This document shows, one piece after another, positions 10,278 to 46,149 of a stretch of 55,419 nt of DNA. The notes beneath the pieces were generated by a model. That model ran no database searches, had not been told where the DNA came from, and saw only the letters and a program-made list of their open reading frames with translations. The stretch spans positions 1 to 55,419 of the forward strand of contig CAZBIU010000002.1 of NCBI GenBank assembly GCA_964491625.1, given 5' to 3'. This DNA comes from an uncultured Myxococcales bacterium. Its GTDB lineage: Bacteria; Myxococcota_A; Polyangia; Fen-1088. Made by a program: the position numbers and the translations under genes. Numbering within the stretch: the stretch's first letter is position 1; the number at the start of each line of letters is the position of its first letter.

Positions 10278-11525
10278 ATGCTCACCAACCGACGAGGCTC
10301 TCTATGGACCGTACTGTTCTTGTCAGCGCCTTTGATGGCCGGCTGTCCCACCAACGACGACCCCTTGGGCACCGGCGTGCAGCAGGATGCAGCTGCACCC
10401 GGCGGCTCAGGAGGAGTCACGAGCACAGGCGGCTTGGCGGGCACGGGTAATGCGACAGGCGAGGGTGGCGTTGCGACCTCAGGTGGCGCGACGGAGACGG
10501 GTGGTGCCACCGGCTCTGGCAATACCTCAGGCTCGGGTGGTTCCACCGTAACATCCACCGTAACATTCGACCCCACCAAGCTGCCGTGCGATATCTACAA
10601 GGATGACGGCGGCCCCTGCGTGGGGGCCCACAGCACGGTTCGGCGCCTTTCGAGCGCGTACACCGGCGCCCTCTACCAGGTCAAGAAGACCGACGGCACC
10701 ACCAAAGACATCACGGCTCTCTCGAACGGGTTCGCAAACGCAGCTGACCAGGACAATTTCTGCGGCACCGATGCCTGTACCATCTCGATCATTTACGATC
10801 AGTCCGGACAGGGTAACGATCTCACCAAGGCGCCCCCGGGCGGCAACAAGACGACCCCTGGGAACGAAGCGAAGGCAAAGGCTTTGCCGGCCACGATCGG
10901 TGGCAACCCGGTCTACGGCGTTCACGTGGTGGCCGGGGTCGGCTATCGGAACAACAGTGCCAAGGGCACCGCGACCGGCGACAATCCCCAGACCATGTAC
11001 ATGATCGCGGGCGGCAGCTACTACAACGGTGGCTGCTGTTTCGATTACGGGAACGCCGAGACCAACAGTCGCGACAACGGCGAGGGCACGATGGAAGCGG
11101 TCTACTTCGGAACTTGCACCATCTGGGGCAAGGGCGCCGACAATGGCCCATGGGTGATGGGGGACCTCGAGAACGGCCTCTGGGCCGGCAACGTAAGCCC
11201 CTACAACCAGAACACACCGGTGAGCTACACGTACGTCACGGGCATGGTGAAGGGTGACGTGACCGCGTCGGGAACCCAGGGCCACTGGGCCATCAAGGTC
11301 GGGAATGCACAGTCCGGACCCCTGTCCAAACCGTTCGACGGAGTGCGACCGAACTCAAGATACATCCCCATGCGCAAGGAAGGCGCCATCATCCTTGGCA
11401 CCGGCGGCGACAACAGCAACTCCGATCAGGGGAACTTCTTCGAAGGGATCATGACTGCCCGCTATTCATCGGATGCGGCCGACGACGCCGTGCAGGCAAA
11501 CATCGTTTCCGTGTACGGGCAGTAG
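10278..11525 (+). CDS. lipoprotein with GH54-type alpha-L-arabinofuranosidase B catalytic domain, no arabinose-binding domain
   Basis: Lipobox 'LMAGC' and a Gly-rich linker. Then 'CDIYKDDGGPCVGAHST', 'FCGTDACTISIIYDQSGQGNDLTKAPPGG', 'CCFDYGNAETNSRDNGEGTMEAVYFG' and 'KEGAIILGTGGDNSN' closely parallel fungal AbfB. Confidence 0.85.
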   Translation: MLTNRRGSLWTVLFLSAPLMAGCPTNDDPLGTGVQQDAAAPGGSGGVTSTGGLAGTGNATGEGGVATSGGATETGGATGSGNTSGSGGSTVTSTVTFDPTKLPCDIYKDDGGPCVGAHSTVRRLSSAYTGALYQVKKTDGTTKDITALSNGFANAADQDNFCGTDACTISIIYDQSGQGNDLTKAPPGGNKTTPGNEAKAKALPATIGGNPVYGVHVVAGVGYRNNSAKGTATGDNPQTMYMIAGGSYYNGGCCFDYGNAETNSRDNGEGTMEAVYFGTCTIWGKGADNGPWVMGDLENGLWAGNVSPYNQNTPVSYTYVTGMVKGDVTASGTQGHWAIKVGNAQSGPLSKPFDGVRPNSRYIPMRKEGAIILGTGGDNSNSDQGNFFEGIMTARYSSDAADDAVQANIVSVYGQ

Positions 11526-25700: not shown

Positions 25701-27197
25701 GTCGGGATTTCTGGCCAGGCGCGCCTGCAGAAGCTCGATGAGCTCGGGCGTCTTCTGGGTGCGCTGGTAGACGTCTTCAAGACTCGATTCCACGTGCGGG
25801 TTGCCCGGATTTCGTTCCAGAAGCTTTTGATAGAGGGCACCCAGAGCATCCCAGCGGTCGGCCTTGCGCAGAAGCGATTCGACATTGGCGAGCGCCTCCG
25901 CGTTCTTGGGATCGCGGTCGAGCAGCTTCTGATACGCGGCGATGGCCTCGTCTTGCCTTTCCGGATCGTCGCCCAGCATGCGCGCGACGCCCAGGCTCAT
26001 CGCACCGAGGTTGGCCGAATCGCCGGCCTCGCGCTCGATCTGGCGCAGCTCGTCCAGGAATTCCTTCGCCTGCCCCGCCTTGTCCGCGGCTTGCTTGGCA
26101 TCGCTGAGCAAGGAAGCGTCGTGGGGAGTCAGGTGAAGAGCCATGAGCAGGACCGGGTAGGCCCGGTCGGGCGCGGACAGGTCCTTTTCCAGCACGCGGC
26201 CCGCCTCGTACAGGTCGGCCGCCTGATCCTCGGGGTCGGGCTCGACCTCGGCCCGGCTGATGAGGGCGCCGACCACGCGCTCCCATTCCTTGTCCTCGCG
26301 CAGCTTGGCCAATCCCTGCTCGACCATGCCCTCTGCTTCCTTGTCCTCGGGGTCGGAGGTCAGGATCCCAAGCCAGGCCTCGACGTCATCCGCCGACGGC
26401 TTGTTGCTGGCCAGCGCGCAGCCCTCGGCAAGGGCCTTGAGCGCGTCCTCTAGCGTGCCCTCGACGGACACGGGCGTAAGCCCGAACTCGGCCTGCACCC
26501 GACGGGCTACGGCCGAAGGCAGATCGGGCGCCACGAAGAAGTGCTGCACCGTCGACGTGCTGGCGCCCAGGATCCGGCCGGCCAACAAGGCCAAATCCGG
26601 ATCGTCGGGCGAGAAGCCGGCAAACACCAGCGACCACTTCTGGTAAAGCCCGTCGAGAAACTTGGCTGCGCCTGTGGCCACGATCTTGGGCGCGATGTCA
26701 GAAGGCGCCAGACACAGCGATGCCGGCACGTCCGGTCGACCGAAGGGCTGAAGCAGAAAGCGCCCGCGGCCATTTTCCAGCGCGGCTGCGCTGGCGGCGA
26801 ATACCATGCGTCCGGCCATGTCCGGGCTGGCCGCGAGGGCGGTCGTCCAAATCGAATCGAGACCGGTCGTGATGATGCCGCGCCACGGCGCTTGGGCGAG
26901 CGCTTGCACGGCCTCCGGGGCTTGCCCGCGCGCGGGAAGAAGTCCCTGCAGCGCTTCCGCCAGCTCGGTCTCGGGCAAGGTGGAGCGCAGCATAGCCAGC
27001 GCGGCTGAAAGTTGGCGCGCCTCCGCCAGGTCGAGAATCGCCCGCTTCTCCGACTCGTCCTGTACGCGCTCCGCCAGGGCCGAAACCAGTGCGCGCCAGC
27101 CGGGAAGGACTGCAAGCTCCGAGCACCCCAGACCTGCGACCAAGACCGCCTGGCGATTCTTGAGCCGTTCGAGAAGTGCTGAAGACAGTTGGTGCAT
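22764..27197 (-). CDS. 1477-aa protein: degenerate SIR2-like (SIR2_2-type) N-terminal domain, ~900 aa of TPRs, unknown ~400-aa C-terminal domain
   Basis: N-terminal 'AVLVAGLGCSELAVLPGWRALV', 'GIITTGLDSIW', 'LLQPFGRPD' and 'SLVFAGFSPDDPDLALL' follow the SIR2_2 layout. Many 34-aa TPR units ('...ALANVESLLRKADRWDALGALYQKLLERNP...'). Confidence 0.85.
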   Translation of the reverse strand: MHQLSSALLERLKNRQAVLVAGLGCSELAVLPGWRALVSALAERVQDESEKRAILDLAEARQLSAALAMLRSTLPETELAEALQGLLPARGQAPEAVQALAQAPWRGIITTGLDSIWTTALAASPDMAGRMVFAASAAALENGRGRFLLQPFGRPDVPASLCLAPSDIAPKIVATGAAKFLDGLYQKWSLVFAGFSPDDPDLALLAGRILGASTSTVQHFFVAPDLPSAVARRVQAEFGLTPVSVEGTLEDALKALAEGCALASNKPSADDVEAWLGILTSDPEDKEAEGMVEQGLAKLREDKEWERVVGALISRAEVEPDPEDQAADLYEAGRVLEKDLSAPDRAYPVLLMALHLTPHDASLLSDAKQAADKAGQAKEFLDELRQIEREAGDSANLGAMSLGVARMLGDDPERQDEAIAAYQKLLDRDPKNAEALANVESLLRKADRWDALGALYQKLLERNPGNPHVESSLEDVYQRTQKTPELIELLQARLARNPDDAGARARLETLYEENQRWQPLATMYERRIEKDPDDRDLREKLEALYHKTQQWQPLGMLLERELVKNPDSVDALNKVEDLYRKSEQWRPLADLLERRAERREPAGARTMRMERASIFIDKLKDFDAALVVAKGLAARDPGTAEEIYAKCLDRDPGNADALLALSDLARDKGDHLRAAKFILDAALRTQNPLELGRLFAEAGSVYLDHLSDQGKAIEYFERALASDPEQTTAAGRLLALREKAEDWAAAEPLLDLLLRKTPDDGAGGKRDLYLRQVRLARNLGKPDKLATALAAASKVEPQSAPLAREYADVLFERQAWAEARDEYERARGLLDEKTPAEERAFLCERLGACSVHLDQIDAAIRYYGDALALEPNKRSTLETLIDLRAAREEWKEVVALKQQMLALVTADDDKARIFDEIGDVEQEQLSDWPAAMQAYREALAAQPARRQTLYKTLDYYTQQKQWSPAVETLQKLAGLEDDPAGRAKLSYAMAAIYRDEMKDAAKAVELFSRVLDDSPMYPKAFEAVEKLLGEAKEWKDLDRAYRKQLKRLPEDASPQLKLRLLDALADLSLKSRDKDAAAEAMEEAASFDRDDVARQERLANLYFSMGPSAADKAIAQHQRLLVQKPDRIDSYKALAALFFQAGAHDKMWCVAGAMTCLGKADPPLRTLYENLRPTQTATSPGKLAQELWRRIVHPDENQHLGALLALLSPALASIAGEPYKSFGLDKNTRVDVSGNAWSYAGALRYVANTIETPLPEVYLKPEAPGTVTLVNVKDKSAAVPAFIIGLGFDQLSSQSQVVFDLAKRMVHLRPERFARISMGTESALDTAIRAGLQLGGAPVDPGEHRAEVAKLAKQLDGLLGASLRTELKVLAKKYVESSGGAIDAGKWMIASDLTASRAALAICGDIGAAARVLSLEPTGQSPVPVPERIYDLLSYFVSEDHFAVRAALGLQVNLNQPSEPDPQPKRRMSHMQIKTQE

Positions 27198-30450: not shown

Positions 30451-32418
30451 CTAGCTTTTCACCGGAACCACGAAGGTCGTGACCGAATTGGCGGGAATGG
30501 TGGCGGTGAAGCTCCAGCCTTGCGGCGAGGCGGAGGTCAGGTGCGCCAGATCCTCGCTGGTGGAAGTTCGGTACGCGTCGATGCTCGTGCCGAGCGAGGG
30601 CAGCGAGGTGAGGTCAAAGGTGAATCCCTTGCTGCCCGACGTGTCGCCGTTGCGAACCACAATCGTTAGCGTCGCCCCGTCGGCCGACAGGGCAGCCACC
30701 ATGTCCGCGTTGTTGATGTCGACAAATGTGGCGCCCGGGCGAATGTAGCGGGTGAATCCGGACTGCATGTAGAAGCGTTTGAGCGGCGTCCAAGTCTGCT
30801 GGGAATCGTCCACGGTGAAGCTGGTCCAGGTTTCGCCTGGGTCCACCACCTGCCACTCGATCCAGGCTTCGGGCTGCAAATCGCGCAGATCCTGAATGAT
30901 CCGTCCCGCCATGAAGATGGCCGCAGCGGCGTTGTCGGCCAAGGTCACGCTCAGCGGGCCGCTTTCCGACTGCCACAGGCGTTTGCCCTTGCTGGTGGCG
31001 AGCGCGCGAAGCTGCGTGCGCTTGGAGCCTGCGTAAGAGTGCACGTTGATTTGCGCCATCGCGGCTAGCGTCGTCGCGTCGTAAGCGCCGATGATGCTGT
31101 AGGCGTCGTCCATGCTGTTTTCGTCCGAGGCACTGAGGTGGGTGTCGGTGATGCCCTTCGTGCCGAGCGACGCCGAAACAGCTTTGATGACCTGCTGCTG
31201 ATTGGCGGCGCTGAAATGACAGCCCTCTTGGCTGCCGTTTGCCGTCCACCAATTGGCGTTGGGCTCGTTCATCGGTTCCAGGGTGCGGAAGGTGATGCCG
31301 AGCGCGTCGTGATAGTGCTTGGTCACCTCGGTCAAATAGTCTGCAAACGTGTCGTAGGAATCGTCCTTCAGGTTGTTGGAGCCGTCGGTGTTGCCGGAGG
31401 CGCAGCCGCTCTTGGTCATCCAATACGGCGGCGAATTGGAGAACGCCTCGATGATCACGTCCTTGCCGGTCGACACCAGGCGCGTGAGCACCGACGTCTG
31501 GCGCGAGTCCGCGTTCCAGTCCCAGGTGCCGCTGCTGGATTCGAAGCCCGGCATCTGCCGATTGGCTTCCATGTGATTGTGGCCCGGGGCATCGCCGCCG
31601 CCGATGTTGTAGCGGAAGACGTTGTAGCCAAGCCCGGCCACCGGGTCGACGATGAGGTCGAGGAACTGATTGCGCTTGCTTTCCGACCAGCCGCCGATGC
31701 GGTAGGCCCACCAAGCGAGGCTGGTGCCCCAGCCCTCGAAGGTCTGGTGTTTGGTGTTGACGTCGACCTTGACCAGGGTGGTGCCCGGCGCGGCGACCAC
31801 GGTGGTCTTGCCGCCGGCACCGGTGGCACCGCCGGTCGCCATGGTTCCCGCCGAGCCGCCTCTGCCGCCGCCCGCCACGCCGCCGCTGCCTGCGGCATCG
31901 GACAGCGGGACGTCACCGCCGGCCCGCGCATCTGCGGATGTGCCTCCGCTGCCAGGGGCGCCGCCGGTGATGATGGCCGCGTCGGCCCCCGATCCACCCG
32001 CGGCGCCGCCCGCGCCCGAGAACCCGCCTGCTCCGCCCCTGCCGCCGCTTCCCTGACCGCCGGATGCTTGACCGCCCGCTGCCTGACCGCCGCTTCCCTG
32101 ACCGCCGGATGCTTGACCGCCGGCGGCTCGTCCGCCGGTCGGCTGTCCGCCGCTTGGGACCACGGCTCCGCCCGATCCTGTGGCTCCGCCGGCTTGACTC
32201 GCGCCTCCCGTTGCCGCCACGCCACCACTGCCGCTGGAATTCGCGGTGTTGCCGCCCTTCGCCTGACCGCCCGTGCCCATCTGGTCACCAGTGCCGGCTC
32301 GGCCACCGGACGATAGTGCACCACCCAATCCAGCGCCCGCCGGTTGGGTTCCACATGCGCCCAGCAGGATCGTCGATGCAAACAGGACGACAACACGTCC
32401 TTCGAGATTGTCTTTCAT
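30451..32418 (-). CDS. lipoprotein glycoside hydrolase family 30 (beta-1,6-glycanase/glucosylceramidase-like)
   Basis: Start at ATG 32416-32418 (MKDNLEGRVVVLFASTILLGAC). Gly/Ser/Gln linker. 'HQTFEGWGTSLAWWA', 'FRYNIGGGD' and 'LEPMNEPNANWW'. C-terminal beta-sandwich. Confidence 0.85.
   Translation of the reverse strand: MKDNLEGRVVVLFASTILLGACGTQPAGAGLGGALSSGGRAGTGDQMGTGGQAKGGNTANSSGSGGVAATGGASQAGGATGSGGAVVPSGGQPTGGRAAGGQASGGQGSGGQAAGGQASGGQGSGGRGGAGGFSGAGGAAGGSGADAAIITGGAPGSGGTSADARAGGDVPLSDAAGSGGVAGGGRGGSAGTMATGGATGAGGKTTVVAAPGTTLVKVDVNTKHQTFEGWGTSLAWWAYRIGGWSESKRNQFLDLIVDPVAGLGYNVFRYNIGGGDAPGHNHMEANRQMPGFESSSGTWDWNADSRQTSVLTRLVSTGKDVIIEAFSNSPPYWMTKSGCASGNTDGSNNLKDDSYDTFADYLTEVTKHYHDALGITFRTLEPMNEPNANWWTANGSQEGCHFSAANQQQVIKAVSASLGTKGITDTHLSASDENSMDDAYSIIGAYDATTLAAMAQINVHSYAGSKRTQLRALATSKGKRLWQSESGPLSVTLADNAAAAIFMAGRIIQDLRDLQPEAWIEWQVVDPGETWTSFTVDDSQQTWTPLKRFYMQSGFTRYIRPGATFVDINNADMVAALSADGATLTIVVRNGDTSGSKGFTFDLTSLPSLGTSIDAYRTSTSEDLAHLTSASPQGWSFTATIPANSVTTFVVPVKS
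32042..32121 (-). repeat. 35-nt exact direct repeat with 45-nt period inside the GH30 linker (GGQASGGQGSGGQAA unit)
   Basis: 32042-32076 and 32087-32121 are identical when read base by base. Confidence 0.85.
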
Positions 32419-32595
32419 AAGAGTGGCTCTTTCCCAGCGCTGCGATCCGACCGGCGGCCGGACGGCTGATGCCGAAACCCCAATTATGGCACGCGCAATT
32501 GTCCGTCGGAACACAGTTCTTCGCGGATGCATGGCACGTCAATTCGAGCCAATTCGCCCTTGCCGACCTGGTGCATTCGTGGGCAGCATGCAGAC

Positions 32596-35327: not shown

Positions 35328-38300
35328 CTAACCCGCCGTCTGGATGTCTTCGTCGGGCAAGAGGGCCGCGATCATCGTCGCGCCCGAGGTCTGCTGTGCG
35401 GTGGTCAGGCTCAACGGATTCTCGTCGGTGATAGCCAGGCCCGTGAGCTTGCCGGCGCCATCGTTGTAAAGGCCAACCAAGGTGTCCCAGTTGCTGGCGA
35501 GGTTGCTCGAAGCATCAGCAACCGCCACCGAGTGAACCGTGGCGTTGCCCGCCAGCGTCTGCGCGTCCCCCGCCACGGCATTGGTGACGTCTACCTGGTA
35601 GTTCAGGTTGTCGATCGTACCTAGCGCGGAGGCGCCTGTGGTCCAATCGGATTCGGAGAGGGATAGCATCGGCGAGTCGTCGGTGAGGTGGAGTTGGGAG
35701 AGAGTGTCTCCCAGGGCGAGCACGTCGCCGAAATTGTTCGACACGTTGTCGGCGCTGTCGCTGATGCTGATCGACGTGACCTCAGGGATATTCTGAAGGT
35801 TGGCAAGATCCGCCATGGCCGCTCCCGTGGCTTCAAGCTGGTAGGACCCGTCGATCTTGGACAGCGTGTCCCCGTTGTTGAGCACTTGTGCCGCCGTGAG
35901 CGAGATGGTTTCGTCCTGGTCCGTAAGCGAGATGGAATTCAGGTTCGTCGCGGACGCGAGCGCGTCGAAATTCGCCGCAATTTCCGTGCTCGAATCGCTG
36001 ACGTCCATCGAGGCGACGTGCGTGTCGCTGGCCAGGGTTGTCGCGTCCTGTGCCGAGACATCACTGAGGGCGACACTGTATTGGCCGTCCTTCACTTGCC
36101 CGAGGATGGCGGCCGAGTCGGCGTAGGTCTGGGCGGTCATTTCCATCGCGACGGTCGGATCTTCCACCACAAGCTGGGTGACTTTCGACTGTCCCGCCAG
36201 ATCGCCAAGGGCCGCCGTCAGCGCACTTGCGCTGTCCAGCACCTGGATAGATGTGACCTCGTCCGCGCTTGCCAGGTCGGACACCTGCGACACGCGAGCG
36301 CCCTGGATGGCGGCGGTAATGTCGGTGCTGAACTTCTGGCGTAAGGCATCGCCATTGTTCCAATCGTCAACCCCGATCTGCAGCGCCGAGGAATCGGTCT
36401 CGGCCACGTCGGTAAGCTTGGCGCCGATCTGCGCGAGCGAGCCCCAGGCGGACGACAAATTCGCACCGGTGTCGGACACGGCGAGGCTTGCGACTTGGGT
36501 GTCGGAGGCAAAGGTGGCTGCCTTGGCTGCCGAGACTTGCGAAAGGGAGGCCAGGTAGCCGCCCTGGATCTTGGCCAGCGCCGCCGCGTCTTGTTCGTAC
36601 TGTGCCCCGGTCAGGCTCAGCATGGTGCCGGGTGCGTCGGTCTGGGTGATGCTAAGGAGCTTCGATCCGAGGGAATTGAGATCCGATAGATTGGTGGCGA
36701 TGCTGTCGGCGTCGCCGGAGACATCGACGGTGGCGATCTTGTGGTTGTTGGTGACCAGGGTCTTCGCGTCGCTCGCCGCGACTCCCGTCACCGCCAGCTT
36801 GTAGCTGCCGCCCTTGATGAGAGACAGAACTGGCTGCGCGTCCGACAGCGCGCTTTCATCCAGTGACAGACTCACGGTCGGCGTCTGGTTGGTGATGCTG
36901 TGGATCTTGCTCCCATTGTCTCCGCCGACCAGAGTTTCGAGCGCCGAGAGGTTGTCCTCGATGGCACTGCCCTCGTCGCTCATGTCGATTTGGGTCACCG
37001 CCGTATCACCGGCAATGGCTTGCGCTTGCCCGACGCTGGCGCCGGTGACCGCGAAGGTCGCGTTCTGGTCGAATTTGCTGACGAGATTGTCGTGGACACC
37101 TGCCTGGTAGTTGTCCGCTGACAGCGAGATGGCGCCGCCGTCGCTCTTGGTGATCGAGGTGAGCTCTGCGCCGAGCGTGCGCAGCGCCGACCACTTGGCC
37201 AAGATATTGCGTCCGGTGTCGGTCACTGCGATTTGCCCCACATGCAAATTGGTGGCATCCGCCACCGCCTTGGCCGCGGATACTCCCGTCAGGTTGGAGG
37301 TGTAGCCGCCCCTGATCTTTGCCAACACGGAGGCGCGCGAATCGAGCTGCGTCTGGGTCAGGTCGAAAGCCGCGCCGACATCGGTCTGCTCGATGCTGGT
37401 AAGTCGGGAACCCAGGTGATAGAGCGCATCGAGCCCCGATTTGATATTGGCGCTGGAATCAGCGACCTGGAACTGGACGATGTGCTTGTTGCTGGCCAAA
37501 GTGGTCGCATCGGCTACGCCAGCGCCCGCAATCGCCACCTTGTAGTTGCCGCCCTTGACCTTGTCGAGCACCGCCTGGGTCGCCGCCATGTCGGCAGCTT
37601 GGAACCGCGACACGTCCATGACCAACGGTGTGCTGGAGTTCGTGACCGTAACGCTCGTCAGCTTGCCCTGCCCGTTGAGAGTCTCCAGGTCGTCCAGATT
37701 GGCTACGAGGTTCGCGCCCGAGTCAGCCACTTCGACGGTGTCCACATGGCTGGCCCCGGCTACCGTCGTCGCGGTTCCGGCACTCACATTGGTCACTGCC
37801 AGCTTGTAGGTGTGCTGTCCGTCATCGACGAACTTGCTAAGCAGGGTATCGCTTGCCGCGAATTGATCCGACGTCAAGCGGATGGCGTTGTTCTGATCGG
37901 TCACTTGCACCGTGGTGAGATTGTCCGCAAGGTCTTGCAGGAAGGACCAGTTGCGAGCCAGGTTCTTTGCCGTATCCTGGACATCGACCGTCACCACTTT
38001 GTGGTCCGACGCAAGCGCCCTGGTCTGCGTTGCCGATGCGTCGATGACGTCGAGCATATCGGAGGTGATGATCTTGCCGAGCACGACCTTGTCCTGCTGG
38101 TATTGTTGCCCGGTCAGGCTCAGTGGGTTCTGCGCGTCGGTCTGGCTGATGCTCTTGATACGCAGGCCCACCCGTTGCAAATCATCCAAGTGGCTGGCGA
38201 TGGCGTCGGTGGTGTCGGTGATGGCAATCGACTTGACCTTGCTGTTGGTCGACAGCCCGGAACTGCCGTCGGGACCCAGCGCATCGCTGACGCTGGCGCC

Positions 38301-38852
38301 GGTGATGGCGAGCGTGTAGCCGTGGTTCTTGATCTTGTCCAGGGCATCCTGATCGGCGGTCAGTTGTCCGACCGTGATGCTGAGATTTCCCTGGGTTCCG
38401 GTCTGCGAGATCTCTTGCAACAGCCCGTTTGTCGCGAGGGTCTCCAGGCTGTCCAAGTGGCTTTGAATCGAGGCCCGCGAATCAGCGACCTTCACCGAGG
38501 TCACGTAGCTTGGCAACGCAACGGAAATACTCGCCTTGGCCGCCGTGATGGCGACCGTTTGTCCCGAGCCCGCTCCCCAGATCGCAAGCGCTGCACCGTC
38601 CTTCTGATACTGGGCGCCCGTCACCGTCATGGCCGTGCTGGTGTCGGTAGTGGAGATCGATGTGATCTTGCCTGCCACCGACTGCAAGGCGTCCAGGTTC
38701 TTGGCGATGTTTTGGACACTATCGGAAATATCGACGGTGGCAGAAGGGTGATGGCGCAACTGGGCCAGAGCGTTCGCCACGGTCAGCGGCCCCGAGCCCG
38801 AGTAGTTGCCATTTGTTCCAGGAGAACCTGTAATGCCGCCTACGTCAGACAT
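35328..38852 (-). CDS. 1174-aa signal-less, Cys-free, acidic Ser/Thr/Ala/Asp-rich tandem-repeat protein, family unknown
   Basis: Start taken at ATG 38850-38852 (MSDVGGITGSPG...). There is no obvious SD, so the start is uncertain. 14 repeats of consensus V.s[IV].V.D[ST]a.n[IL]..N[LWF][DS].L..LG.kLtSI..TD...l.Lt..Q......L.KI.gG.Y.l.vtGvsa..A..la.... Confidence 0.8.
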   Translation of the reverse strand: MSDVGGITGSPGTNGNYSGSGPLTVANALAQLRHHPSATVDISDSVQNIAKNLDALQSVAGKITSISTTDTSTAMTVTGAQYQKDGAALAIWGAGSGQTVAITAAKASISVALPSYVTSVKVADSRASIQSHLDSLETLATNGLLQEISQTGTQGNLSITVGQLTADQDALDKIKNHGYTLAITGASVSDALGPDGSSGLSTNSKVKSIAITDTTDAIASHLDDLQRVGLRIKSISQTDAQNPLSLTGQQYQQDKVVLGKIITSDMLDVIDASATQTRALASDHKVVTVDVQDTAKNLARNWSFLQDLADNLTTVQVTDQNNAIRLTSDQFAASDTLLSKFVDDGQHTYKLAVTNVSAGTATTVAGASHVDTVEVADSGANLVANLDDLETLNGQGKLTSVTVTNSSTPLVMDVSRFQAADMAATQAVLDKVKGGNYKVAIAGAGVADATTLASNKHIVQFQVADSSANIKSGLDALYHLGSRLTSIEQTDVGAAFDLTQTQLDSRASVLAKIRGGYTSNLTGVSAAKAVADATNLHVGQIAVTDTGRNILAKWSALRTLGAELTSITKSDGGAISLSADNYQAGVHDNLVSKFDQNATFAVTGASVGQAQAIAGDTAVTQIDMSDEGSAIEDNLSALETLVGGDNGSKIHSITNQTPTVSLSLDESALSDAQPVLSLIKGGSYKLAVTGVAASDAKTLVTNNHKIATVDVSGDADSIATNLSDLNSLGSKLLSITQTDAPGTMLSLTGAQYEQDAAALAKIQGGYLASLSQVSAAKAATFASDTQVASLAVSDTGANLSSAWGSLAQIGAKLTDVAETDSSALQIGVDDWNNGDALRQKFSTDITAAIQGARVSQVSDLASADEVTSIQVLDSASALTAALGDLAGQSKVTQLVVEDPTVAMEMTAQTYADSAAILGQVKDGQYSVALSDVSAQDATTLASDTHVASMDVSDSSTEIAANFDALASATNLNSISLTDQDETISLTAAQVLNNGDTLSKIDGSYQLEATGAAMADLANLQNIPEVTSISISDSADNVSNNFGDVLALGDTLSQLHLTDDSPMLSLSESDWTTGASALGTIDNLNYQVDVTNAVAGDAQTLAGNATVHSVAVADASSNLASNWDTLVGLYNDGAGKLTGLAITDENPLSLTTAQQTSGATMIAALLPDEDIQTAG
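35331..38744 (-). repeat. 14 tandem diverged coding repeats of ~80 aa (~240 nt) with a three-unit super-period of ~247 aa (~740 nt)
   Basis: Repeat starts at aa 37, 117, 206, 286, 370, 458, 538, 619, 706, 787, 866, 946, 1025 and 1106 (hand count). Units 5/8/11, 6/9/12 and 7/10/13 resemble each other more than their neighbours. Confidence 0.8.
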
Positions 38853-39006
38853 CAAAGGGTACTTCGACACGCAGACGGCCGAAGTTAAGGCCGAATTGGA
38901 CAGACTTGAGAAGAAGCCCCAACCGCCCGCAACGCTTGAGGTTCTTCGGCAGTGCCTCTGCGGATCGTGAATTGCGGACCATCGCGGGTCATGACAACGT
39001 GCACGC

Positions 39007-40614
39007 ATGACCGGTTCGTCTGCAGGCTCTCCCAACAACTGTCCTACCTGTGGTGCGCCGCTCTCCGGCCCGTCCAGCGAGCGTTGCGACTACTGCGGGG
39101 CCAGCCTGCGCTCACCGGCCGCCGATCTCAATCGCAACCTTTCCAGCGCGATGTCAGCGTCACGCAAGGTTTGGCGACGATCGTGGATCTACACCGGCGT
39201 GGTGCTGGGAGCGTCGCTGCTGGTCGGAGTGGTCGGCCAGTTTGGGACCCGCCAAGCGGTTCGGCGCAGCAGCGAAGCGAGCCAGCCGTCCAGTGGAAAC
39301 GGGGCGAGACAGCCGTCGGCGGCGAACCAGAACAAGCCCAAGTCTCACGAGCTGTCTGAGCTACTGGCCACCCTCTCGCCGGCCACGGGCGACCCGAAGG
39401 TTCTGTTTTCGACCACGCCACCTGGCGCCATAGCCCTGCTGGACGCGGCGACCTCCCAGCAGCTTTGGAATGCGACGCCGGCCAGCGAGCGAGTCTCCCC
39501 GGACGCTGTCGTCGTGATTGGCGAACGCATTCTCGTCGTCACCCAGTCGAGCGTAGTCGCCTTGCAGATTCGCGACGGGAGCATCGAATGGCAGGCCTCG
39601 CTGGTGGCCGATTACTCGCAGTTCGGAAATCCTGCCAAGGTTCTGTCCGAGCGATTGCTTGTCCAACTGCGCGACGGAACCACGCAAGCTTTCGACATCA
39701 ACACCGGCAAGACCGTCTGGTCGGTCAAGCAACCCCCACCTTCTACGCAATGGCGTGCCGCCGGCGACGTGCTCGTGGACATCCGGTACAACGGCAAGAA
39801 GAGGAAAAAGCCGCTCGAGGTGTTCGTCAGCGACGTGGCGACGGGGCAGGAGACTCACGTCTTCGCACCACGCTGCTCCACCCACTCGGTCATCCCTGCG
39901 AACGAGCCCAGTCTGTCGGTGCCCGCGCTGCTCAGCGAGGACGGCAGCGACCTCTACCTGTTTTACGGATTCAATCGCTTCTGCATCGATCGCTGGAATC
40001 TGCGATCGGGCAAGCTGGTATGGCAAACCAACCGGAACGACGGGTTCGTCGACTCGTCACCGAGGGAGTTGCGTTTTCTGATGGATGACGAGCGCATCGT
40101 CTACGTCGGCACCGACGGCGTCTACCAGGTTCGTCGGCGCAACGGAGAGGTGACCAAGATCGTCGATCGTGAGCAGAACAAGCTCGTCCCCACCTACCTG
40201 AAGGACAACCTGCTCGTGCTCGCCGCCACGGCTTCCTGGGACAGTTTCGAGTGCAAAAGAGCGAAGACATGTGCGCTCTGGGGCGTGGACCTGGCCAAGC
40301 GTGAGGTGCTTTGGCGGTACACGCTTCCCAAAGTGGGATCCTTCCCGTCGAATTCGGAGAGGTTCGCCGGTGCCTTGTCCGGGGATGCGCTCGCGCTGGT
40401 GGAGGATGGGCAGGCCGGCCAGATCGTTTTCGATCGCATTGACCCGGCGACCGGGGTCAGCAAGCTTCATCGAGAGCCAAAGCCGGCCTCCACCGAGAAG
40501 TATTACTTCGAGGCACCGGAGCTTTCGCTGTCAGGTGGTTTCGTATGGTTCAAAGAGAACGGATTTTCCGCAATCGATCTGGCCTCGGGCTCGATCCGCT
40601 ATCGACTGCGCTGA
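39007..40614 (+). CDS. zinc-ribbon / single-TM / PQQ-like beta-propeller protein
   Basis: 'CPTCGAPLSGPSSERCDYCG' zinc ribbon, TM 'IYTGVVLGASLLVGVVGQF', then repeated '...G...W' blades ('DGSIEWQASL', 'TGKTVWSVKQ', 'SGKLVWQTNR', 'KREVLWRYTL'). Confidence 0.7.
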   Translation: MTGSSAGSPNNCPTCGAPLSGPSSERCDYCGASLRSPAADLNRNLSSAMSASRKVWRRSWIYTGVVLGASLLVGVVGQFGTRQAVRRSSEASQPSSGNGARQPSAANQNKPKSHELSELLATLSPATGDPKVLFSTTPPGAIALLDAATSQQLWNATPASERVSPDAVVVIGERILVVTQSSVVALQIRDGSIEWQASLVADYSQFGNPAKVLSERLLVQLRDGTTQAFDINTGKTVWSVKQPPPSTQWRAAGDVLVDIRYNGKKRKKPLEVFVSDVATGQETHVFAPRCSTHSVIPANEPSLSVPALLSEDGSDLYLFYGFNRFCIDRWNLRSGKLVWQTNRNDGFVDSSPRELRFLMDDERIVYVGTDGVYQVRRRNGEVTKIVDREQNKLVPTYLKDNLLVLAATASWDSFECKRAKTCALWGVDLAKREVLWRYTLPKVGSFPSNSERFAGALSGDALALVEDGQAGQIVFDRIDPATGVSKLHREPKPASTEKYYFEAPELSLSGGFVWFKENGFSAIDLASGSIRYRLR

Positions 40615-40661: not shown

Positions 40662-41072
40662 ATGAACCCAAAGACCAAGCTCGTTCTCCTCGGCTCGGCC
40701 GCGTTTCTCATCGCGGCGGTGCTGTACGGGCAGTTGTCGATGTCCTCGTCCAAACCGGGGACGCCTTTCACCGCGGACGGGGAGGTGGTGTCCCGCGTCT
40801 TTGAGCCCGAGCACGATGCCGTGCCGAGACCGTACACCAAGCAGCAGCTCGGTCACGCCCAGGCGTGGGCCAAAGTCGGGGCCCGGTACCTCATCAACGT
40901 CAAGCTGGACAGTGGCGAGATGCTGACGGGAGACTGCGCGCCTCAAGCGGTCGACCAGTATCCCGTCGGACAGCGCGTGCGCATCCAAGGCGAGCGTAAC
41001 GCCCCCACCTTGTTCGGAAAGGGGATCATTATCCACTCGATGTTGCCCGTCGGTGCGAGCGGCGCGAGGTGA
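40662..41072 (+). CDS. small N-terminally anchored hypothetical protein
   Basis: 'LVLLGSAAFLIAAVLYGQL' anchor, 136 aa, on the same strand 47 nt after the propeller gene. Confidence 0.5.
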   Translation: MNPKTKLVLLGSAAFLIAAVLYGQLSMSSSKPGTPFTADGEVVSRVFEPEHDAVPRPYTKQQLGHAQAWAKVGARYLINVKLDSGEMLTGDCAPQAVDQYPVGQRVRIQGERNAPTLFGKGIIIHSMLPVGASGAR

Positions 41073-41245: not shown

Positions 41246-41773
41246 CTAGTCTTCGAAGCGTAGCCGAGCTGTTCCCGCCACCGGAAGCATGGGCACGCCG
41301 GCACGCTCAAGCGCTTTCGCTCCGTCCGAGAAGCGGTGACTCCTCACGGGCGCAGTCGCCCCAGTCTGGGGGTTGACGGCAGTGACGCCAGTGCGAGTTG
41401 CGGCGATTATCCGCCTGGAGAGCTTCCTCCATATGCCAAGGACGGCCTTGTCAGAAGTGCGGGCGGTAATTCCGGATTCCTGGAGACCAGCGTCGACCCT
41501 TCGGCCGATGTCGAGCAGGAGTGCGCTCGGGTTTCGATCCAAGAAGCCCATCATGCCATTGCCCCGCAGCACCGGCCGCTTGATTGTGAACGCAAGACGC
41601 TCCACATCGGTTTGATGTAGCACCAATACAAGAGCCTGGTTCTCCACGGGGATGACTTTGAACGGCTCGTACTTGATGGCAGAGACAAAGATCCGAGCGT
41701 CCTGGACGAAGTCCTGCACCAGCAAAAGGAGCTCGTCGGGAGTAGCGTGAAATTGAATTGAGATGTCGGACAT
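41246..41773 (-). CDS. candidate immunity protein for the Rhs C-terminal toxin (cytoplasmic, family unknown)
   Basis: 175-aa ORF starting 21 nt after the Rhs stop on the same strand. No signal peptide. Visibly AT-richer than its surroundings. Confidence 0.6.
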   Translation of the reverse strand: MSDISIQFHATPDELLLLVQDFVQDARIFVSAIKYEPFKVIPVENQALVLVLHQTDVERLAFTIKRPVLRGNGMMGFLDRNPSALLLDIGRRVDAGLQESGITARTSDKAVLGIWRKLSRRIIAATRTGVTAVNPQTGATAPVRSHRFSDGAKALERAGVPMLPVAGTARLRFED

Positions 41774-41794: not shown

Positions 41795-44700
41795 TTAGTT
41801 GTTGTAAGCAACGAAGTCCGTTGGGAGTCCACCCGGACCATTCAGGTCCGCCAAAGCAGTCCGTTCGCGTGTTACTGGCTGCCCACTGGCGTCAACCTTA
41901 CCAACGTTTCGCCCACGGAGCTCGCCTTTCTTTGTCCGGTACAGGATGTCCGGTCGGCGGCCATCCTTCTGTCCGCCAGGCGTGGGGATGAGCTTTTCCT
42001 TCGCACGCCCGCCGCCAGCGAGAATGGTGTTTCCCTTTCTCTGGAGCTTGTTCGCCTCTGCGCGAATCTTGGCGTTGTGGGGTGCCTTGGGATCCGTCTT
42101 CGGCCCACGCTTTTTCCCCTTCCCACCCTTCTTTGCGTCCTCCTTGTTCTTGCCCTTGGCGTCCTTCTTGGCCTTCTTTGCCGCCTTCTTCGCGGCCTTC
42201 GCTCGCGGACACGCCTTCAGGCCATCCAGATCCACCGCCCGCAGTGGATTCTCGGTATAGGCGTATAGGTTGAGACTGCCCTCGGTGCCTGCGGGATCGG
42301 ATTGCAGATAGCGGCCGAGCTCGGGGCTGTAGGTTCGGAAGCGGTTGTCGTGTAGGCCCGTTTCGGAGTCGTAGTAGTGCCCTGGCCAGCGTAGTGGCTG
42401 GTGGAAATCTGCGCCCACGTCGATCTGGGCCGTGCCGTACGGGTCTATACGCGCGCGCCAGACAGCACGGCCGGCGTCGTCCAGCACCAGCTCGGGACAG
42501 CCGAGGTGGTCGGTATGGATGTGATAGCGCTTGCCGGTGGCCGGGTCGGCATCAACGCTCTCATACTCCAGGAACAGGATTGGTACCAGGGCCGCGGCGT
42601 CCGGGTAAACGTACACGCGCAGCCGGCCGTCGGGGAAGATCTCTGCGGCCAGGCGATCGGTATCCCAGTAGTACTGCCAGGTCTGGCCGCTGATGGTCTT
42701 CCGGGTCCGACGACCCAGACCGTCGTGAACCGCCCGGTAGCTGATGCCCGGCCCATCGATCGCGTTTAGTAGGTCGCGCGAATCGTAGGTGTACTTGGTG
42801 GTGCCCGCGCGACCTCGGCGTTGCGAGAGGTTGTCACGCTCGTCGTAGCTGAACTGGTCGTCGTTGGCCTCCAGCAGACGGTTGCCTGTCTGCATGCGTG
42901 CGGAGAGACCTGGGGCCTTGAGCAAGTTGCCCGCCCGGTCGTAGGCGTATTCATGGGCCGTGCCGTCCCACAAGCGCACCTTCGACAGCCGGTGTACTTC
43001 GTCGTGCTCGAAGATCGTGGTTCCGCGGAGGCTGTCATCGCGTTGGACCAGATCGCCTTCACCCGAGTACGCGAAACGCCGAGCCCACCCACCAGTCTTC
43101 CTTAGGCCGGGGCCTTCTGCGGCCTTGAGCAGACAACGTCCGCTGGGGTCGTAGTGGCTCAGCTCTTCGACGTCGTTGGAGCAAGCCCGTTCGACCAGGC
43201 CCGGCCCGCGCAGGTGCAGGCGCTGGGTCTGACCTCCCGGGTCCAGTACCACGGTCGTGGTGTCGTCGGTCTGGATGTACCTGGTGACGAATCTCCCGAG
43301 GACGCTGGTTTCGGCAAGGCGATCCGCCTCGAAGCGGTGGCGCGCGCCTTTGCCATCGCGTTCGTCCGCCGTGCGCTGGCCCTGGTCATCGTAGGCAAAG
43401 GTGACGGTGCCAGCCTGATTCTTGGCCTGGGCCAGCCGGCCGTTGGGTAGGTATTTGAAGTCCTCCACATCGCCAGAGCCCAAGAGGCGCTGTGCGATCT
43501 CATTGCCCTTGGTGATGGCCAGCTTGAGCAGCAAGCGCCCCTGGCCGTCGCGCTTTTCGGTAAGGTTATCGGCGGCGTCATAGACGTATCTCTCACGCAC
43601 CTTGCCGTGGCGACGTACTTCGACCAGGCGGTCCTTGAGGTCGTAGCTGTACTCGCTGCGGGTGCCGCCCGGATCGACGATGGCCGAGACCTCTTCGCTC
43701 TTGGTGTATGCGTATTCGGTAACGCTGCCTTGGCCGTCGATCTCGCGCAGTAGGAAGTTCCAAGACCCGTTTTCGTAGCGCGTGGTGCGGCCGTCGAAGT
43801 CGGTGTACCAGCGCTCGAAGCCGTTCTGGTCGTAGCCCCAACGCCGGCTCTTGCCGTCTTTGCGTTCCTCGCGAAGTAGTAGCCCCTGGACGTCCCTGAC
43901 CTTGGTGGGATCGGGCAGCGCGGCGCTCGGGTTGGGTCCCCACAGGTCGACCACCCAATGGGGCAACCAACGTTCCAGGGGCACGTCCGCGGGAACAACC
44001 TCGATGGGACCAGGCCATTCGCCGTGCTCCCATTCCACCGGGGTATCCGGCAGCTCGTGCGACAGCGGGTGCGGGGGAGGATTCTCTTGTTCTTCTAGCA
44101 GCTCCGGGTAGCCGAACGGGTCCAGCTTGGCGTAGGGCAGGTCGCCTTCGTCGTAGAGGATCTCGCTCTCGTTGCCGTTGGGATCCACCTCCTTCACAAC
44201 CCGCCCGTCCTCGTCCTTCAGATAGGCAGTCACCCCGCCGCATGGATCGATGATCTGGACCAGCTCTTTCTGGTCGTCGTAGTAGTAGCTGGTGACCGCG
44301 CCATCGCCGCGGGTGACCACAGTCAGGTGCTCTTCCACCTTGAATTCGAGGCGAAATTCCTCTACGCCGTCCTCGCCCCAGGTGTGGATGCAACGCCCGT
44401 CCTTGTCGTATTCGAAGAAGAAGCTGTAGCCGCGTCGGTCGATGGTTTGAATGACACGGTTGCTGTCGTCGTAGACATAGCGAAGGACGCCGCCGTAGGC
44501 GTTCTCGATCTCGATCAGGCGTCCCTCGCGGTCGTAACCGTAGCGAACAAGACGGTGCTTGTTGGTCGAGCCGGCCTCCAGCAGCACAGCGCCAGCGAGG
44601 TGCGTGCCGGCGTACTCGAACACCACGCGCTTGCTCACGTCGACTTGGATTGCGGCCAGCAGCCCCTTGTCGTACTGCAAGCGTAGGGGCGGGCGCGGGT

Positions 44701-45148
44701 CGTCCTCCTCATAGAAGATCCTGGTCGGTCGGGCGACCGGCTCCCGGTCGAAGCGGAACTCCAGGCTCGGGGCATCGCCCGGGGGATGGATTCGGAAGGT
44801 GGTGGAGCTGACCCGTTCCAGCTCGTGCCCACTGCGCATGCAGCAGTCGCGGTCGGCGGCAGGGAACGGGAACTGGATGTTGTCGGCCTCGGGGCCGGCG
44901 AAGGTCAGGCCGTCCAGGTCGAAGCGGAGCTCGAAGTCGAGCGAGAACCAGAACCCATGCCCGACGCCACGATCGATCTGGTTGCGATTGCTATCGTAGT
45001 AGCGAGCGCCGGCAAGGAAGATATGCGCTCCCTGAAGCTGGAAATCCGTCACGACCGACGTCTGCGCACCGGTCACGACGTCCACGGGATCGCCCACCAG
45101 GTGGAGGCTGTCCTTCCATGGCAGGCTGCCGCAACACTTGGTGGTCAT
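41795..45148 (-). CDS. Rhs-family T6SS effector: DUF6531-like N-terminus, YD-repeat shell, core with DLDGL cleavage motif, 140-aa unknown C-terminal toxin
   Basis: Start ATG 45146-45148 (MTTKCCGSLPW..VGDPVDVVTGAQ). YD repeats ('YGYDREGRLIEIENAYGGVLRYVYDDSNRV'). Core end 'RFRTYSPELGRYLQSDPAGTEGSLNLYAYTENPLRAVDLDGL'. The longer ORF N-terminus is shadow. Confidence 0.9.
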   Translation of the reverse strand: MTTKCCGSLPWKDSLHLVGDPVDVVTGAQTSVVTDFQLQGAHIFLAGARYYDSNRNQIDRGVGHGFWFSLDFELRFDLDGLTFAGPEADNIQFPFPAADRDCCMRSGHELERVSSTTFRIHPPGDAPSLEFRFDREPVARPTRIFYEEDDPRPPLRLQYDKGLLAAIQVDVSKRVVFEYAGTHLAGAVLLEAGSTNKHRLVRYGYDREGRLIEIENAYGGVLRYVYDDSNRVIQTIDRRGYSFFFEYDKDGRCIHTWGEDGVEEFRLEFKVEEHLTVVTRGDGAVTSYYYDDQKELVQIIDPCGGVTAYLKDEDGRVVKEVDPNGNESEILYDEGDLPYAKLDPFGYPELLEEQENPPPHPLSHELPDTPVEWEHGEWPGPIEVVPADVPLERWLPHWVVDLWGPNPSAALPDPTKVRDVQGLLLREERKDGKSRRWGYDQNGFERWYTDFDGRTTRYENGSWNFLLREIDGQGSVTEYAYTKSEEVSAIVDPGGTRSEYSYDLKDRLVEVRRHGKVRERYVYDAADNLTEKRDGQGRLLLKLAITKGNEIAQRLLGSGDVEDFKYLPNGRLAQAKNQAGTVTFAYDDQGQRTADERDGKGARHRFEADRLAETSVLGRFVTRYIQTDDTTTVVLDPGGQTQRLHLRGPGLVERACSNDVEELSHYDPSGRCLLKAAEGPGLRKTGGWARRFAYSGEGDLVQRDDSLRGTTIFEHDEVHRLSKVRLWDGTAHEYAYDRAGNLLKAPGLSARMQTGNRLLEANDDQFSYDERDNLSQRRGRAGTTKYTYDSRDLLNAIDGPGISYRAVHDGLGRRTRKTISGQTWQYYWDTDRLAAEIFPDGRLRVYVYPDAAALVPILFLEYESVDADPATGKRYHIHTDHLGCPELVLDDAGRAVWRARIDPYGTAQIDVGADFHQPLRWPGHYYDSETGLHDNRFRTYSPELGRYLQSDPAGTEGSLNLYAYTENPLRAVDLDGLKACPRAKAAKKAAKKAKKDAKGKNKEDAKKGGKGKKRGPKTDPKAPHNAKIRAEANKLQRKGNTILAGGGRAKEKLIPTPGGQKDGRRPDILYRTKKGELRGRNVGKVDASGQPVTRERTALADLNGPGGLPTDFVAYNN

Positions 45149-46149
45149 CACGACTCTCCCGCCGGGGCCGGAGGGGGGGGCGGACACCCACAGTCCCCGC
45201 CGACTCCCTTCTTGTTGCCGCCACCGCCCTTGCCGCTCAACTTTTTCGCCAGCCCCTTCAGCTTGTTCTTCAGCCACTTCGCGATGGCGTCGGTGGCGGG
45301 CACGGGCACGCCGGCGACCAGCACGGTGGGCGCGCCCATCATCACGAAGCCGGGCAGCTTGGGCGGAATCGCCGGGTCCGAGCCCATCATGGCACTGAGC
45401 GCGGCGGCGATGGCGTCGGCCACGGTTTGCGCCGCGGTCATGGACGCTGCCAGCACCTGGGCCGCTGCCATGGCCGCGGCGCCTTCCGTCTGGCTCGCGG
45501 CGGTGTCGGCCGCGCCCTCGAGCCCCTCGACCAGATCGATGCCGGCGCTGAGCAGCGCCAGCGCGCCCATCGGGCTGCGCGGCTTGCCCGGCGAGCACAC
45601 CGTGCACATGTCGGTCATGCGCGCGGCTCGGGCACCGCCGATGAAGACCTTCGACGATCCCAAGAACACCGTAAAATACGGCGCAAGGCCACCGCAGGTA
45701 GGCGCCATGCCCAAATCGCCCACGCGCGCTGCGGGCATGCCGCCCACCAGAACCCGCACGCAGGTTCCCAGGGTGATGGCGCCCATGCTGGGCAGGGGCA
45801 CGGGCGGCGCGGGGGGAATCAAGCTCGGCGGATGGGCGTGTGCGTGGGGCGCGCCGACGTAGAGCGAACCCAACTGCGCGGCCGGGAACGACGGCAAGAT
45901 GGCCGCAATGGCGTTGGTGGCCACCGCGACGCCGGTCTCGACCAGGTTGGTGTACATCTTCTCGGGCAGGCCCTTCACGGCGTCGATGGCGCCCGATACT
46001 TTTTTCACCGCTCCAATCGGATCCTTCAGGATCTCTTGCGGATGGGTTACCACATCGGCGGCAGCGCTGACCGAATCGGTGGTCGACTTGATGGTCGATT
46101 CCACCGTCTGGCCGAGAGCCGTGAGTCCAGAGTCGACGTAGCCACTCAT
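45148..46149 (-). CDS. PAAR-domain protein with helical N-terminal region and Ala-rich hydrophobic insertion
   Basis: 'HAHAHPP...VLVGGMPAARVGD', 'VFIGGARAARMTD' and, ~85 aa later, 'VLVAGVPVPATD'. The TGA overlaps the Rhs ATG by 1 nt (TGATG). Confidence 0.8.
   Translation of the reverse strand: MSGYVDSGLTALGQTVESTIKSTTDSVSAAADVVTHPQEILKDPIGAVKKVSGAIDAVKGLPEKMYTNLVETGVAVATNAIAAILPSFPAAQLGSLYVGAPHAHAHPPSLIPPAPPVPLPSMGAITLGTCVRVLVGGMPAARVGDLGMAPTCGGLAPYFTVFLGSSKVFIGGARAARMTDMCTVCSPGKPRSPMGALALLSAGIDLVEGLEGAADTAASQTEGAAAMAAAQVLAASMTAAQTVADAIAAALSAMMGSDPAIPPKLPGFVMMGAPTVLVAGVPVPATDAIAKWLKNKLKGLAKKLSGKGGGGNKKGVGGDCGCPPPPPAPAGES

Follow-up and report, generated by a model that had tools for sequence, protein, structure and literature searches.

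The window analysed here, a stretch of 55,419 nucleotides from an uncultured Myxococcales bacterium (contig CAZBIU010000002.1), carries on its minus strand a gene for a protein of 1174 amino acids which behind a short N-terminal segment is built of tandem repeats of about 80 residues (Table 1). The longest minus-strand open reading frame (ORF) at this place spans positions 35328..39038 and would start with TTG; the 1174-residue product starts with the ATG at 38852. This ATG is the start used by gene callers on 11 metagenome contigs encoding the identical protein, and in the alignment with about 90 orthologs it coincides with their N-termini. The TTG-started ORF overlaps the beginning of the divergent propeller gene (39007-40614, ATG at 39007). 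The real intergenic region between the repeat gene and the propeller gene measures about 154 bp (vicinity of 38853-39038) and must hold both promoters.

The protein is acidic (129 D and E versus 56 K and R residues, isoelectric point 4.23), contains no cysteine and is rich in A, S, T, L and D. A hydropathy scan revealed neither a hydrophobic N-terminal stretch (maximal KD19 hydropathy of 0.19 over the first 40 windows) nor an N-terminal signal peptide for the Sec or Tat pathway, and the N-terminus is rich in G, S, N and T. This is the composition of residues 1-19, which differ among the orthologs and are followed by a conserved helix. At the other end of the protein the tail shows a column identity of 0.74 in the ortholog alignment versus 0.66 for the body. 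A Pfam search of the protein gave no match to the RTX nonapeptide domain HemolysinCabind (GGxGxDxUx), which only distant relatives carry. Signal peptide, RTX motif and cysteine, which an earlier note on this DNA had reported missing, are indeed all three absent.

A hidden Markov model (HMM) of the repeat unit detects 14 copies in the protein, beginning at residues 38, 117, 206, 286, 370, 458, 538, 619, 706, 787, 866, 946, 1025 and 1106, and had no match in 200 shuffled versions of the protein. These boundaries agree with the list in the earlier note, which had described 14 units of about 80 residues behind 36 N-terminal residues. That note further proposed that each unit contains three sub-units of about 26-28 residues and that the units are organized in a super-repeat of about 247 residues. 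The first proposal stands only loosely: three segments can be distinguished in the structure model, of unequal size (about 26, 35 and 19 residues), and the homology of the intra-unit segments to one another was not significant. The super-repeat is real. The BLOSUM autocorrelation of the sequence peaks at a lag of 249 residues, and the mean pairwise identity of the units is higher at lag 3 (32.7%) than at lags 1 and 2 (27.7% and 27.1%; p=0.03 by permutation of the unit order on the single sequence). With unit profiles derived from the orthologs, hhalign scored the pairs 2/5, 5/8, 6/9 and 7/10 at 96, 108, 107 and 101, other pairs at about 50, and a permutation test on these profiles was significant for modulus 3 (z=3.4, p=0.002) and for no other modulus. 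The three-unit period is strong in units 2-10 and fades in units 11-14, where the lag-3 scores are 48, 48 and 16.

We modelled the full-length protein with AlphaFold2 using 67 aligned sequences. The model has a mean predicted local distance difference test score (pLDDT) of 88.8, and residues 1-19 alone are disordered. Each unit follows the strand (E) and helix (H) pattern E-HH-E-E-HH-E-H. The predicted template modelling score (pTM) of the full-length model is low (0.39), as would be expected of an elongated chain. Units 5-7 modelled separately reached a pLDDT of 95.4 and a pTM of 0.84; the units are therefore predicted to pack rigidly, stacked as a beta/alpha array rather than strung like beads. 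An alpha/beta architecture of the repeats, for which the earlier note had suggested a solenoid, is thus predicted with high confidence.

Foldseek did not find a match to the full-length model in the PDB at E<=1e-3. The three-unit model retrieved TIM barrels, Rossmann-type enzymes and a de novo design with template modelling (TM) scores of 0.16-0.27 and root mean square deviations above 14 A, which at the level of the models reflects a local beta-alpha-beta likeness without a common global fold. Among known architectures the alpha/beta solenoids of leucine-rich repeat (LRR) proteins of the ribonuclease-inhibitor type come to mind, as they too are stacked rigid repeat arrays in which short strands alternate with helices, and the LRR proteins LegL1 and SKP2 were indeed found as weak Foldseek matches (E about 0.03). 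The repeat protein, however, has no LxxLxLxxN-type motif, and its unit is a compound module of 80 residues with four strands and three helical segments of unequal length. We rejected membership in the LRR family: a Pfam hmmscan at E<=10 returned no LRR model, and the Foldseek TM scores to solved structures were 0.05-0.27.

Other searches for a family had the same outcome. The Pfam hmmscan of the protein yielded nothing but three sub-threshold matches to unrelated families, NCBIfam gave 0 matches, and sequence and profile searches of the PDB with the protein, the unit profile and the ortholog profile were empty, as the earlier note's failure to assign a repeat family had led one to expect. All relatives and clusters looked up are named "hypothetical protein" or unnamed, and in the literature we found nothing relevant on the JOSHI_001 locus tag or on repeat proteins of flagellin loci. 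Among 5.8 billion proteins searched there are 144 relatives, none with a Pfam domain. About 90 of them are orthologs of 1145-1212 residues (mostly 1164-1180) with 45-69% identity; a second clade comprises proteins of 1359-1484 residues with about 30% identity. In a genome scan with an alignment of 22 close sequences the closest matches were metagenome-assembled genomes (MAGs) labelled Myxococcales, Polyangia or "delta proteobacterium", others being MAGs of Opitutae/Opitutaceae. Named protein matches include Burkholderiales bacterium JOSHI_001, where the gene has the locus tag BurJ1DRAFT_1363, and a Rubrivivax MAG, and the window DNA itself is present in rhizosphere metagenomes. In a word-indexed search the unit profile retrieved no more than 4 short fragments. 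When the 14-unit profile was searched exhaustively against 1.84 billion cluster representatives, 1386 protein clusters were found at E<=1e-3 and 401 at E<=1e-30, the largest arrays reaching about 70 units in proteins of 5290 residues. The family is thus without a curated model, a name or a solved structure and was not found in the literature consulted.

The number of units is strictly conserved. The complete genes in 50 loci have exactly 14 or 17 units each, even at 29-45% identity. The 204 pure arrays include 97 with 14 units, 45 with 17 and 8 with 26; altogether 165 have a unit number of the form 3n+2, these counts not being phylogenetically independent. A joint alignment shows that the 17-unit proteins differ from the 14-unit proteins by one contiguous insertion of about 240 residues at residue ~958, corresponding roughly to window position 35978. 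As the longer form corresponds to the shorter one with a single contiguous block of three units added, we conclude from the sequences that the super-repeat is the unit of evolutionary change in the 14/17-unit part of the family, that arrays change in blocks of three units and that the copy number is held by selection at 14 or 17. In each of the four 17-unit proteins tested the similarity was highest at lag 3, which also dominates in a giant protein of 41 units (similarity 313 versus 92), whereas in some other giants lag 1 or lag 2 is best. The unit types A, B and C defined in the 14-unit clade could not be transferred to other clades, and lag analysis was used there instead. The strict conservation of 14 or 17 units points to a structural role that depends on length.

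Directly in front of the start codon we find a sequence resembling promoters of sigma factor 28. All 18 examined 17-unit loci carry TCAAG-N14-G[CT]CGA[TC], including those away from flagellar genes; for 14 of these loci the distance from the end of the -10 block to the ATG is 8 nt, for the other four 2-9 nt. A position weight matrix (PWM) was trained on these 17-unit sites only and then applied to the 14-unit loci. In five of them, with roughly 94,000-141,000 candidate sites ranked in each, the site at the start codon came 1st of 140,976 in L001 (the JOSHI_001 locus), 2nd in L008 and L013, 3rd in L011 and 4th in L005. In L001 it is the best sigma-28-type site of the 23.5-kb locus. As a positive control, the matrix marks the promoters of flagellin, FlaG, FliD, FliS and FlgM genes in the same loci, situated about 40-220 nt (mostly about 50-130 nt) upstream of the start codon. 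The site of the window, CTTAAC-N15-GTCGAAGT-N8-ATG, is weak (score 4.7, rank 84 of 332,322). Its position is conserved in L003, L051, L052, L009, L008, L010 and L013. Orthologs of the lineage read ATTAAC-N15-GCCGAAAC-N8-ATG (L051), CTTAAC-N15-ACCGAAAC-N8-ATG (L003), CTTAAC-N15-GCCGAAGA-N10-ATG (L052) and CTTATC-N15-GCCGAAGA-N10-ATG (L009). The window and these four share the GCCGAA of the Myxococcota-lineage variant of the motif, CTTAAC-N15-GCCGAA. A degenerate pattern covering all variants is present at the fixed place in 10 of 11 loci at a background of 4.8e-5 per position, a rate that is indicative only, as the pattern was defined after the sites had been seen. Judged by these motifs, the sigma-28-type promoter is clear for the family and degenerate in the window copy. 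We detected no sigma-70-like promoter in the region.

The spacing of the elements matches the fliC promoter of Pseudomonas aeruginosa, in which the -35 element TCTAAAG lies at -36..-30 and the -10 element GCCGATAA at -15..-8 (PMC12784957). The predicted transcription start therefore coincides with the first letter of the ATG or lies no more than about 3 nt away, and the mRNA would accordingly be leaderless. Without exception the start codons observed are ATG, and a Shine–Dalgarno sequence is not evident, which mildly fits leaderless translation. Both transcription by sigma-28 and leaderless translation are what we infer from the arrangement of these sites.

Several genes of the sister clade reside in flagellar loci. 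One 17-unit gene is located inside a flagellar cluster, with the order FliK-like, FlhB-like, 17-unit gene, FlgN, FlgM, FlgA and FlgB to FlgG; another lies between flagellin genes and adjoins FlaG, a third follows FlgK-FlgL-FliD-FlaG and two flagellins, and a fourth is 7 kb away from FliH/I/J. When 26 further metagenome loci were searched by tblastn with flagellar proteins, flagellin, FlaG, FliD or FlgL was found at a distance of at most 10 kb in 12, and MotAB near the 17-unit gene in one (L039). The flagellar-linked metagenome loci span lineages which share only 29-44% identity. The repeat proteins resemble the late, sigma-28-dependent exported flagellar proteins (flagellin, FliD, FlgM and FlaG) in having a promoter of this type, no signal peptide and a disordered N-terminus, and the sister 17-unit clade is encoded within flagellin/FlaG/FliD loci. 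They differ from them in several respects. The repeat protein has no rod or hook domains and by Pfam no Flagellin_N or Flagellin_C (D0/D1) domain, and flagellin as tblastn query matches the neighbouring genes, not the repeat family. The promoter of the repeat gene abuts the ATG, whereas the flagellin promoters in the same loci do not. Finally, the 14-unit clade lacks linkage to flagellar genes, and the export of the repeat protein is putative.

In the flagellin loci a very large ORF (1608 residues, or at least 4010 residues) is situated directly downstream of the 17-unit gene. These ORFs have no Pfam match, contain no 80-residue units and have a sigma-28-like site of their own; they may stand for another giant, uncharacterised protein that belongs to the late flagellar regulon. 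In one freshwater lineage a conserved protein of 523 residues without Pfam match is encoded directly upstream of and divergently from the 17-unit gene. Its gene adjoins a fusion of IspD and a short-chain dehydrogenase, and the protein may be part of a flagellin glycosylation module.

The surroundings of the 14-unit genes are of a different kind and vary from locus to locus. In the window the gene is neighboured by the divergent gene for a PQQ-like propeller with zinc ribbon, an ORF of 189-206 residues, a convergent Beta_propel gene, a GH30 gene and an Rhs gene; the gene content further includes three Ser/Thr kinases, SIR2-TPR, an arabinofuranosidase and a pectate-lyase-like beta-helix protein, and as a whole agrees with a polysaccharide degrader that resembles myxobacteria. 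By tblastn against the first 13 ortholog loci, which represent six distinct neighbourhoods, none of the neighbouring proteins recurs except one Ser/Thr kinase, nor is the arrangement of the window repeated among the called genes of three further ortholog contigs. We therefore rejected the zinc-ribbon/propeller, Beta_propel, GH30 and Rhs proteins as functional partners, and the divergent position of the zinc-ribbon/propeller gene, which the earlier note had mentioned, seems to carry no meaning. The 14-unit gene of JOSHI_001 adjoins, and is divergent from, an operon for a pilus of the mannose-sensitive haemagglutinin (MSHA) type (L001 1-9804: PilN-like, secretin, MshE ATPase, T2SSF, pilin and DUF6701/MshQ). 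The gene in L003 lies beside a resistance-nodulation-division pump, an efflux system and not a type I secretion system (T1SS), and that of Opitutaceae adjoins three rhamnogalacturonan lyases. Other neighbourhoods contain a radical-SAM gene, kinase genes, or sigma-54 activator operons together with a pectate-lyase-fold gene. In three lineages (the window, Opitutaceae and P0022) the 14-unit genes are thus near plant-cell-wall-degrading enzymes, which may be chance in genomes rich in carbohydrate-active enzymes. A further gene of the window (22764-27197, minus strand) encodes a protein of 1477 residues in which numerous TPR repeats come after an N-terminal SIR2_2 domain, an architecture that recalls defence systems based on SIR2 or systems that deplete NAD.

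The earlier note had also recorded that genes for cargo of a type VI secretion system (T6SS) are close by. The Rhs/YD-shell gene with DUF6531 (41795-45607, minus strand) lies 2.9 kb from the repeat gene, and near the gene of the closest ortholog, P0002, there are a DUF2169 gene and, 245 bp downstream, a VgrG gene, so that the protein might be a cargo or accessory of the Rhs/VgrG islands. These two contigs are, however, the only cases of T6SS linkage in about 12 distinct 14-unit neighbourhoods: we did not find a T6SS gene near the other 14-unit orthologs examined or near any 17-unit gene, and the neighbourhoods are not conserved. Moreover, Pfam shows no PAAR, MIX, Rhs, adaptor or toxin domain in the protein, and the repeat gene, which has a promoter of its own, does not share its strand with the small ORF (40662-41072, plus strand) which separates it from the Rhs gene. 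A role in type VI secretion is thus very improbable. The Rhs gene, followed by two small ORFs without Pfam matches (that just mentioned and 41246-41773, minus strand), probably forms a toxin/immunity island, which by comparative context is unrelated to the repeat gene.

Table 1. Features of the repeat gene and of associated loci. Positions refer to the window unless a locus (L) is given.
Feature	Position	Strand	Remarks
Coding sequence, 1174 residues and stop	35328..38852	-	acidic, pI 4.2; no Cys; no signal peptide
N-terminal 36 residues	38745..38852	-	residues 1-19 predicted disordered, then conserved motif GP.TVA.ALA.LR
Unit 1, residues 37-116	38505..38744	-	unit HMM
Units 2-4, residues 117-369, first three-unit block	37746..38504	-	unit 2 like unit 5 (hhalign 96)
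Units 5-7, residues 370-618, second three-unit block	36999..37745	-	modelled alone: pLDDT 95.4, pTM 0.84
Units 8-10, residues 619-865, third three-unit block	36258..36998	-	closest paralog of units 5-7 (108, 107, 101)
Units 11-13, residues 866-1105, more diverged block	35538..36257	-	hhalign profile scores
Unit 14, residues 1106-1174, truncated	35331..35537	-	conserved end ..MI.ALLPDE.IQTA.
-35-like element CTTAAC	38884..38889	-	orthologs CTCAAG or CTTAAC here
-10-like element GTCGAAGT, consensus GCCGATAA	38861..38868	-	15-nt spacer from -35; ends 8 nt before ATG
Arabinofuranosidase	10278-11525		
Pel9A-like beta-helix protein	15620-17557		
GH30 protein	30451-32532		
Three rhamnogalacturonan lyases, Opitutaceae	L005 13650-20394		
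Pectate-lyase-fold protein, P0022	L052 11558-13120		
Giant ORF downstream of 17-unit gene	L016 14653-19479		
Giant ORF downstream of 17-unit gene	L019 14315-24110		cut
Giant ORF downstream of 17-unit gene	L029 ~12750 onward		
523-residue protein	L019 8187-9758	-	also in L025-L029, L042, L046

The 80-residue unit is also used in other proteins. Non-repeat regions are present in 23 distant relatives, among which RTX nonapeptide blocks and HCBP_related were found in four each, DUF4214 and calpain-type protease domains in two each, and Peptidase_M10_C, Hint_2, Big_5 or PPC in single proteins. A plasmid-encoded protein of Methylovirgula (3459 residues, about 8 units) is flanked by genes for an HlyC-type acyltransferase, an ATP-binding cassette (ABC) transporter with peptidase domain and an HlyD adaptor. 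The fusions to RTX blocks and this T1SS operon suggest that the unit occurs in proteins which are exported unfolded and fold outside the cell. In its long tandem array, acidity, lack of cysteine and independence of Sec the repeat protein moreover resembles the giant adhesins and S-layer proteins of the RTX/T1SS type (LapA type, RsaA). We therefore considered that it could be a type-I-secreted surface protein without RTX repeats, adhesin- or S-layer-like, with a C-terminal signal and with its ABC transporter, membrane fusion protein and TolC encoded elsewhere; the richness in A, S, T and D and the conserved C-terminal tail would suit such a protein. The ABC/HlyD linkage is, however, seen only for the Methylovirgula relative: such a pair is absent beside the repeat gene in the window and beside the approximately 25 stand-alone 14- and 17-unit genes examined. 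The units are beta/alpha and not Ig-like, the copy number is strictly fixed, which is unusual for adhesins, and the sigma-28-type promoter and the flagellin synteny would be left unexplained. Type I secretion of this protein thus seems rather doubtful to us. Taken together, the protein behaves as one of the Sec-independent tandem-repeat or solenoid kind which lacks the defining features of LRR, RTX, flagellin and T6SS-effector families.

The in silico findings from which we start are the repeat anatomy with its fixed copy number, the predicted fold, the lack of a curated family, the promoter motif and the place where it lies, and the synteny of the sister clade with flagellar genes. Our preferred reading, which we put forward as tentative and somewhat short of probable, is that of a Sec-independent, exported, rod-like protein of fixed length which is co-expressed with late motility genes; its export, its extracellular location and its role as a rod or ruler are what we infer. 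The stand-alone gene would be transcribed together with the late motility genes from a promoter of the sigma-28 (FliA) family as a leaderless mRNA. The protein would then be exported in an unfolded state and adopt its fold only outside the cell, as a rod whose length is defined and which could serve as a structural or adhesive element of the surface. The likeliest and most economical export route of the 17-unit clade, which is linked to flagellin genes, would be the type III apparatus of the flagellum. We suggest co-expression with late motility genes because of the leaderless sigma-28-type promoter and the residence of the sister clade in flagellin loci, a defined length because of the rigid array of conserved length, and export in an unfolded state because the protein has no Sec/Tat signal, no cysteine, a disordered and variable N-terminus and an acidic composition, and because its units occur in giant RTX and type-I-secreted proteins.

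Several observations weigh against this reading. The promoter of the window matches the consensus (of the form TAAAG/TCAAG-N14-15-GCCGATAA) at only 4/6 and 4/8 positions, and in a search for RNA-seq data no run was found to hold the repeat gene. Flagellar genes were not detected by tblastn within 8-10 kb of the 14-unit genes in L001-L013 and L020-L024, nor among the window genes scanned against Pfam. To our knowledge cultured members of the Myxococcota are without flagella, and the closest relatives of the protein come from Myxococcota MAGs. From the relatives fused to RTX blocks one would expect type I export and not type III export. The shape of an open beta/alpha solenoid or rod is deduced solely from the secondary-structure pattern together with the pTM and confidence scores of the models.

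Sigma-28 regulons of model bacteria also hold proteins that are not exported. Possibly the repeat protein is such a case, namely a non-secreted cytoplasmic or periplasm-independent scaffold of the motility regulon, for example a structural protein associated with the cell pole or the motor, and the sigma-28-type promoter, the absence of a recognisable secretion motif and the predicted rigidity and fixed length would agree with this. We nevertheless consider a scaffold of this kind unlikely, since extracellular hallmarks (RTX, PPC, Big_5 and the T1SS operon) recur among the proteins that contain the 80-residue unit, and the lack of cysteine and the disordered, variable N-terminus fit exported substrates better.

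The reading of an exported, co-expressed rod can be extended to a more specific proposal, which we regard as rather improbable in its entirety: the protein would be a hitherto unrecognised component of the late flagellar regulon, a beta/alpha rod of 14 or 17 units transcribed by sigma-28 without leader, exported by the flagellar type III apparatus and located on or beside the filament or on the cell surface, and three units would be the quantum of its length. Lineages such as the uncultured Myxococcota would have kept the 14-unit form together with its promoter. A preprint describes flagellar assembly genes in some novel uncultured Myxococcota MAGs (10.1101/2021.07.06.451402).

The family defined by the 80-residue unit is large, with 1386 clusters at 50% identity, and lacks a Pfam or NCBIfam model, a solved structure and a functional name. 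A strict number of 14 or 17 units across phyla that changes only by blocks of three is unusual for bacterial tandem-repeat proteins, as is the sigma-28-type promoter at the start codon. The confidence of the predicted fold suffices for planning the crystallography of three units as a block and for starting a new family model. The promoter abutting the ATG and the location of the sister clade in flagellin loci offer a concrete hypothesis: the late flagellar regulon would have a further, new product, translated from an mRNA without leader. If this is true, the 14-unit form in uncultured Myxococcota may mark cryptic flagellation or a re-purposed export route.

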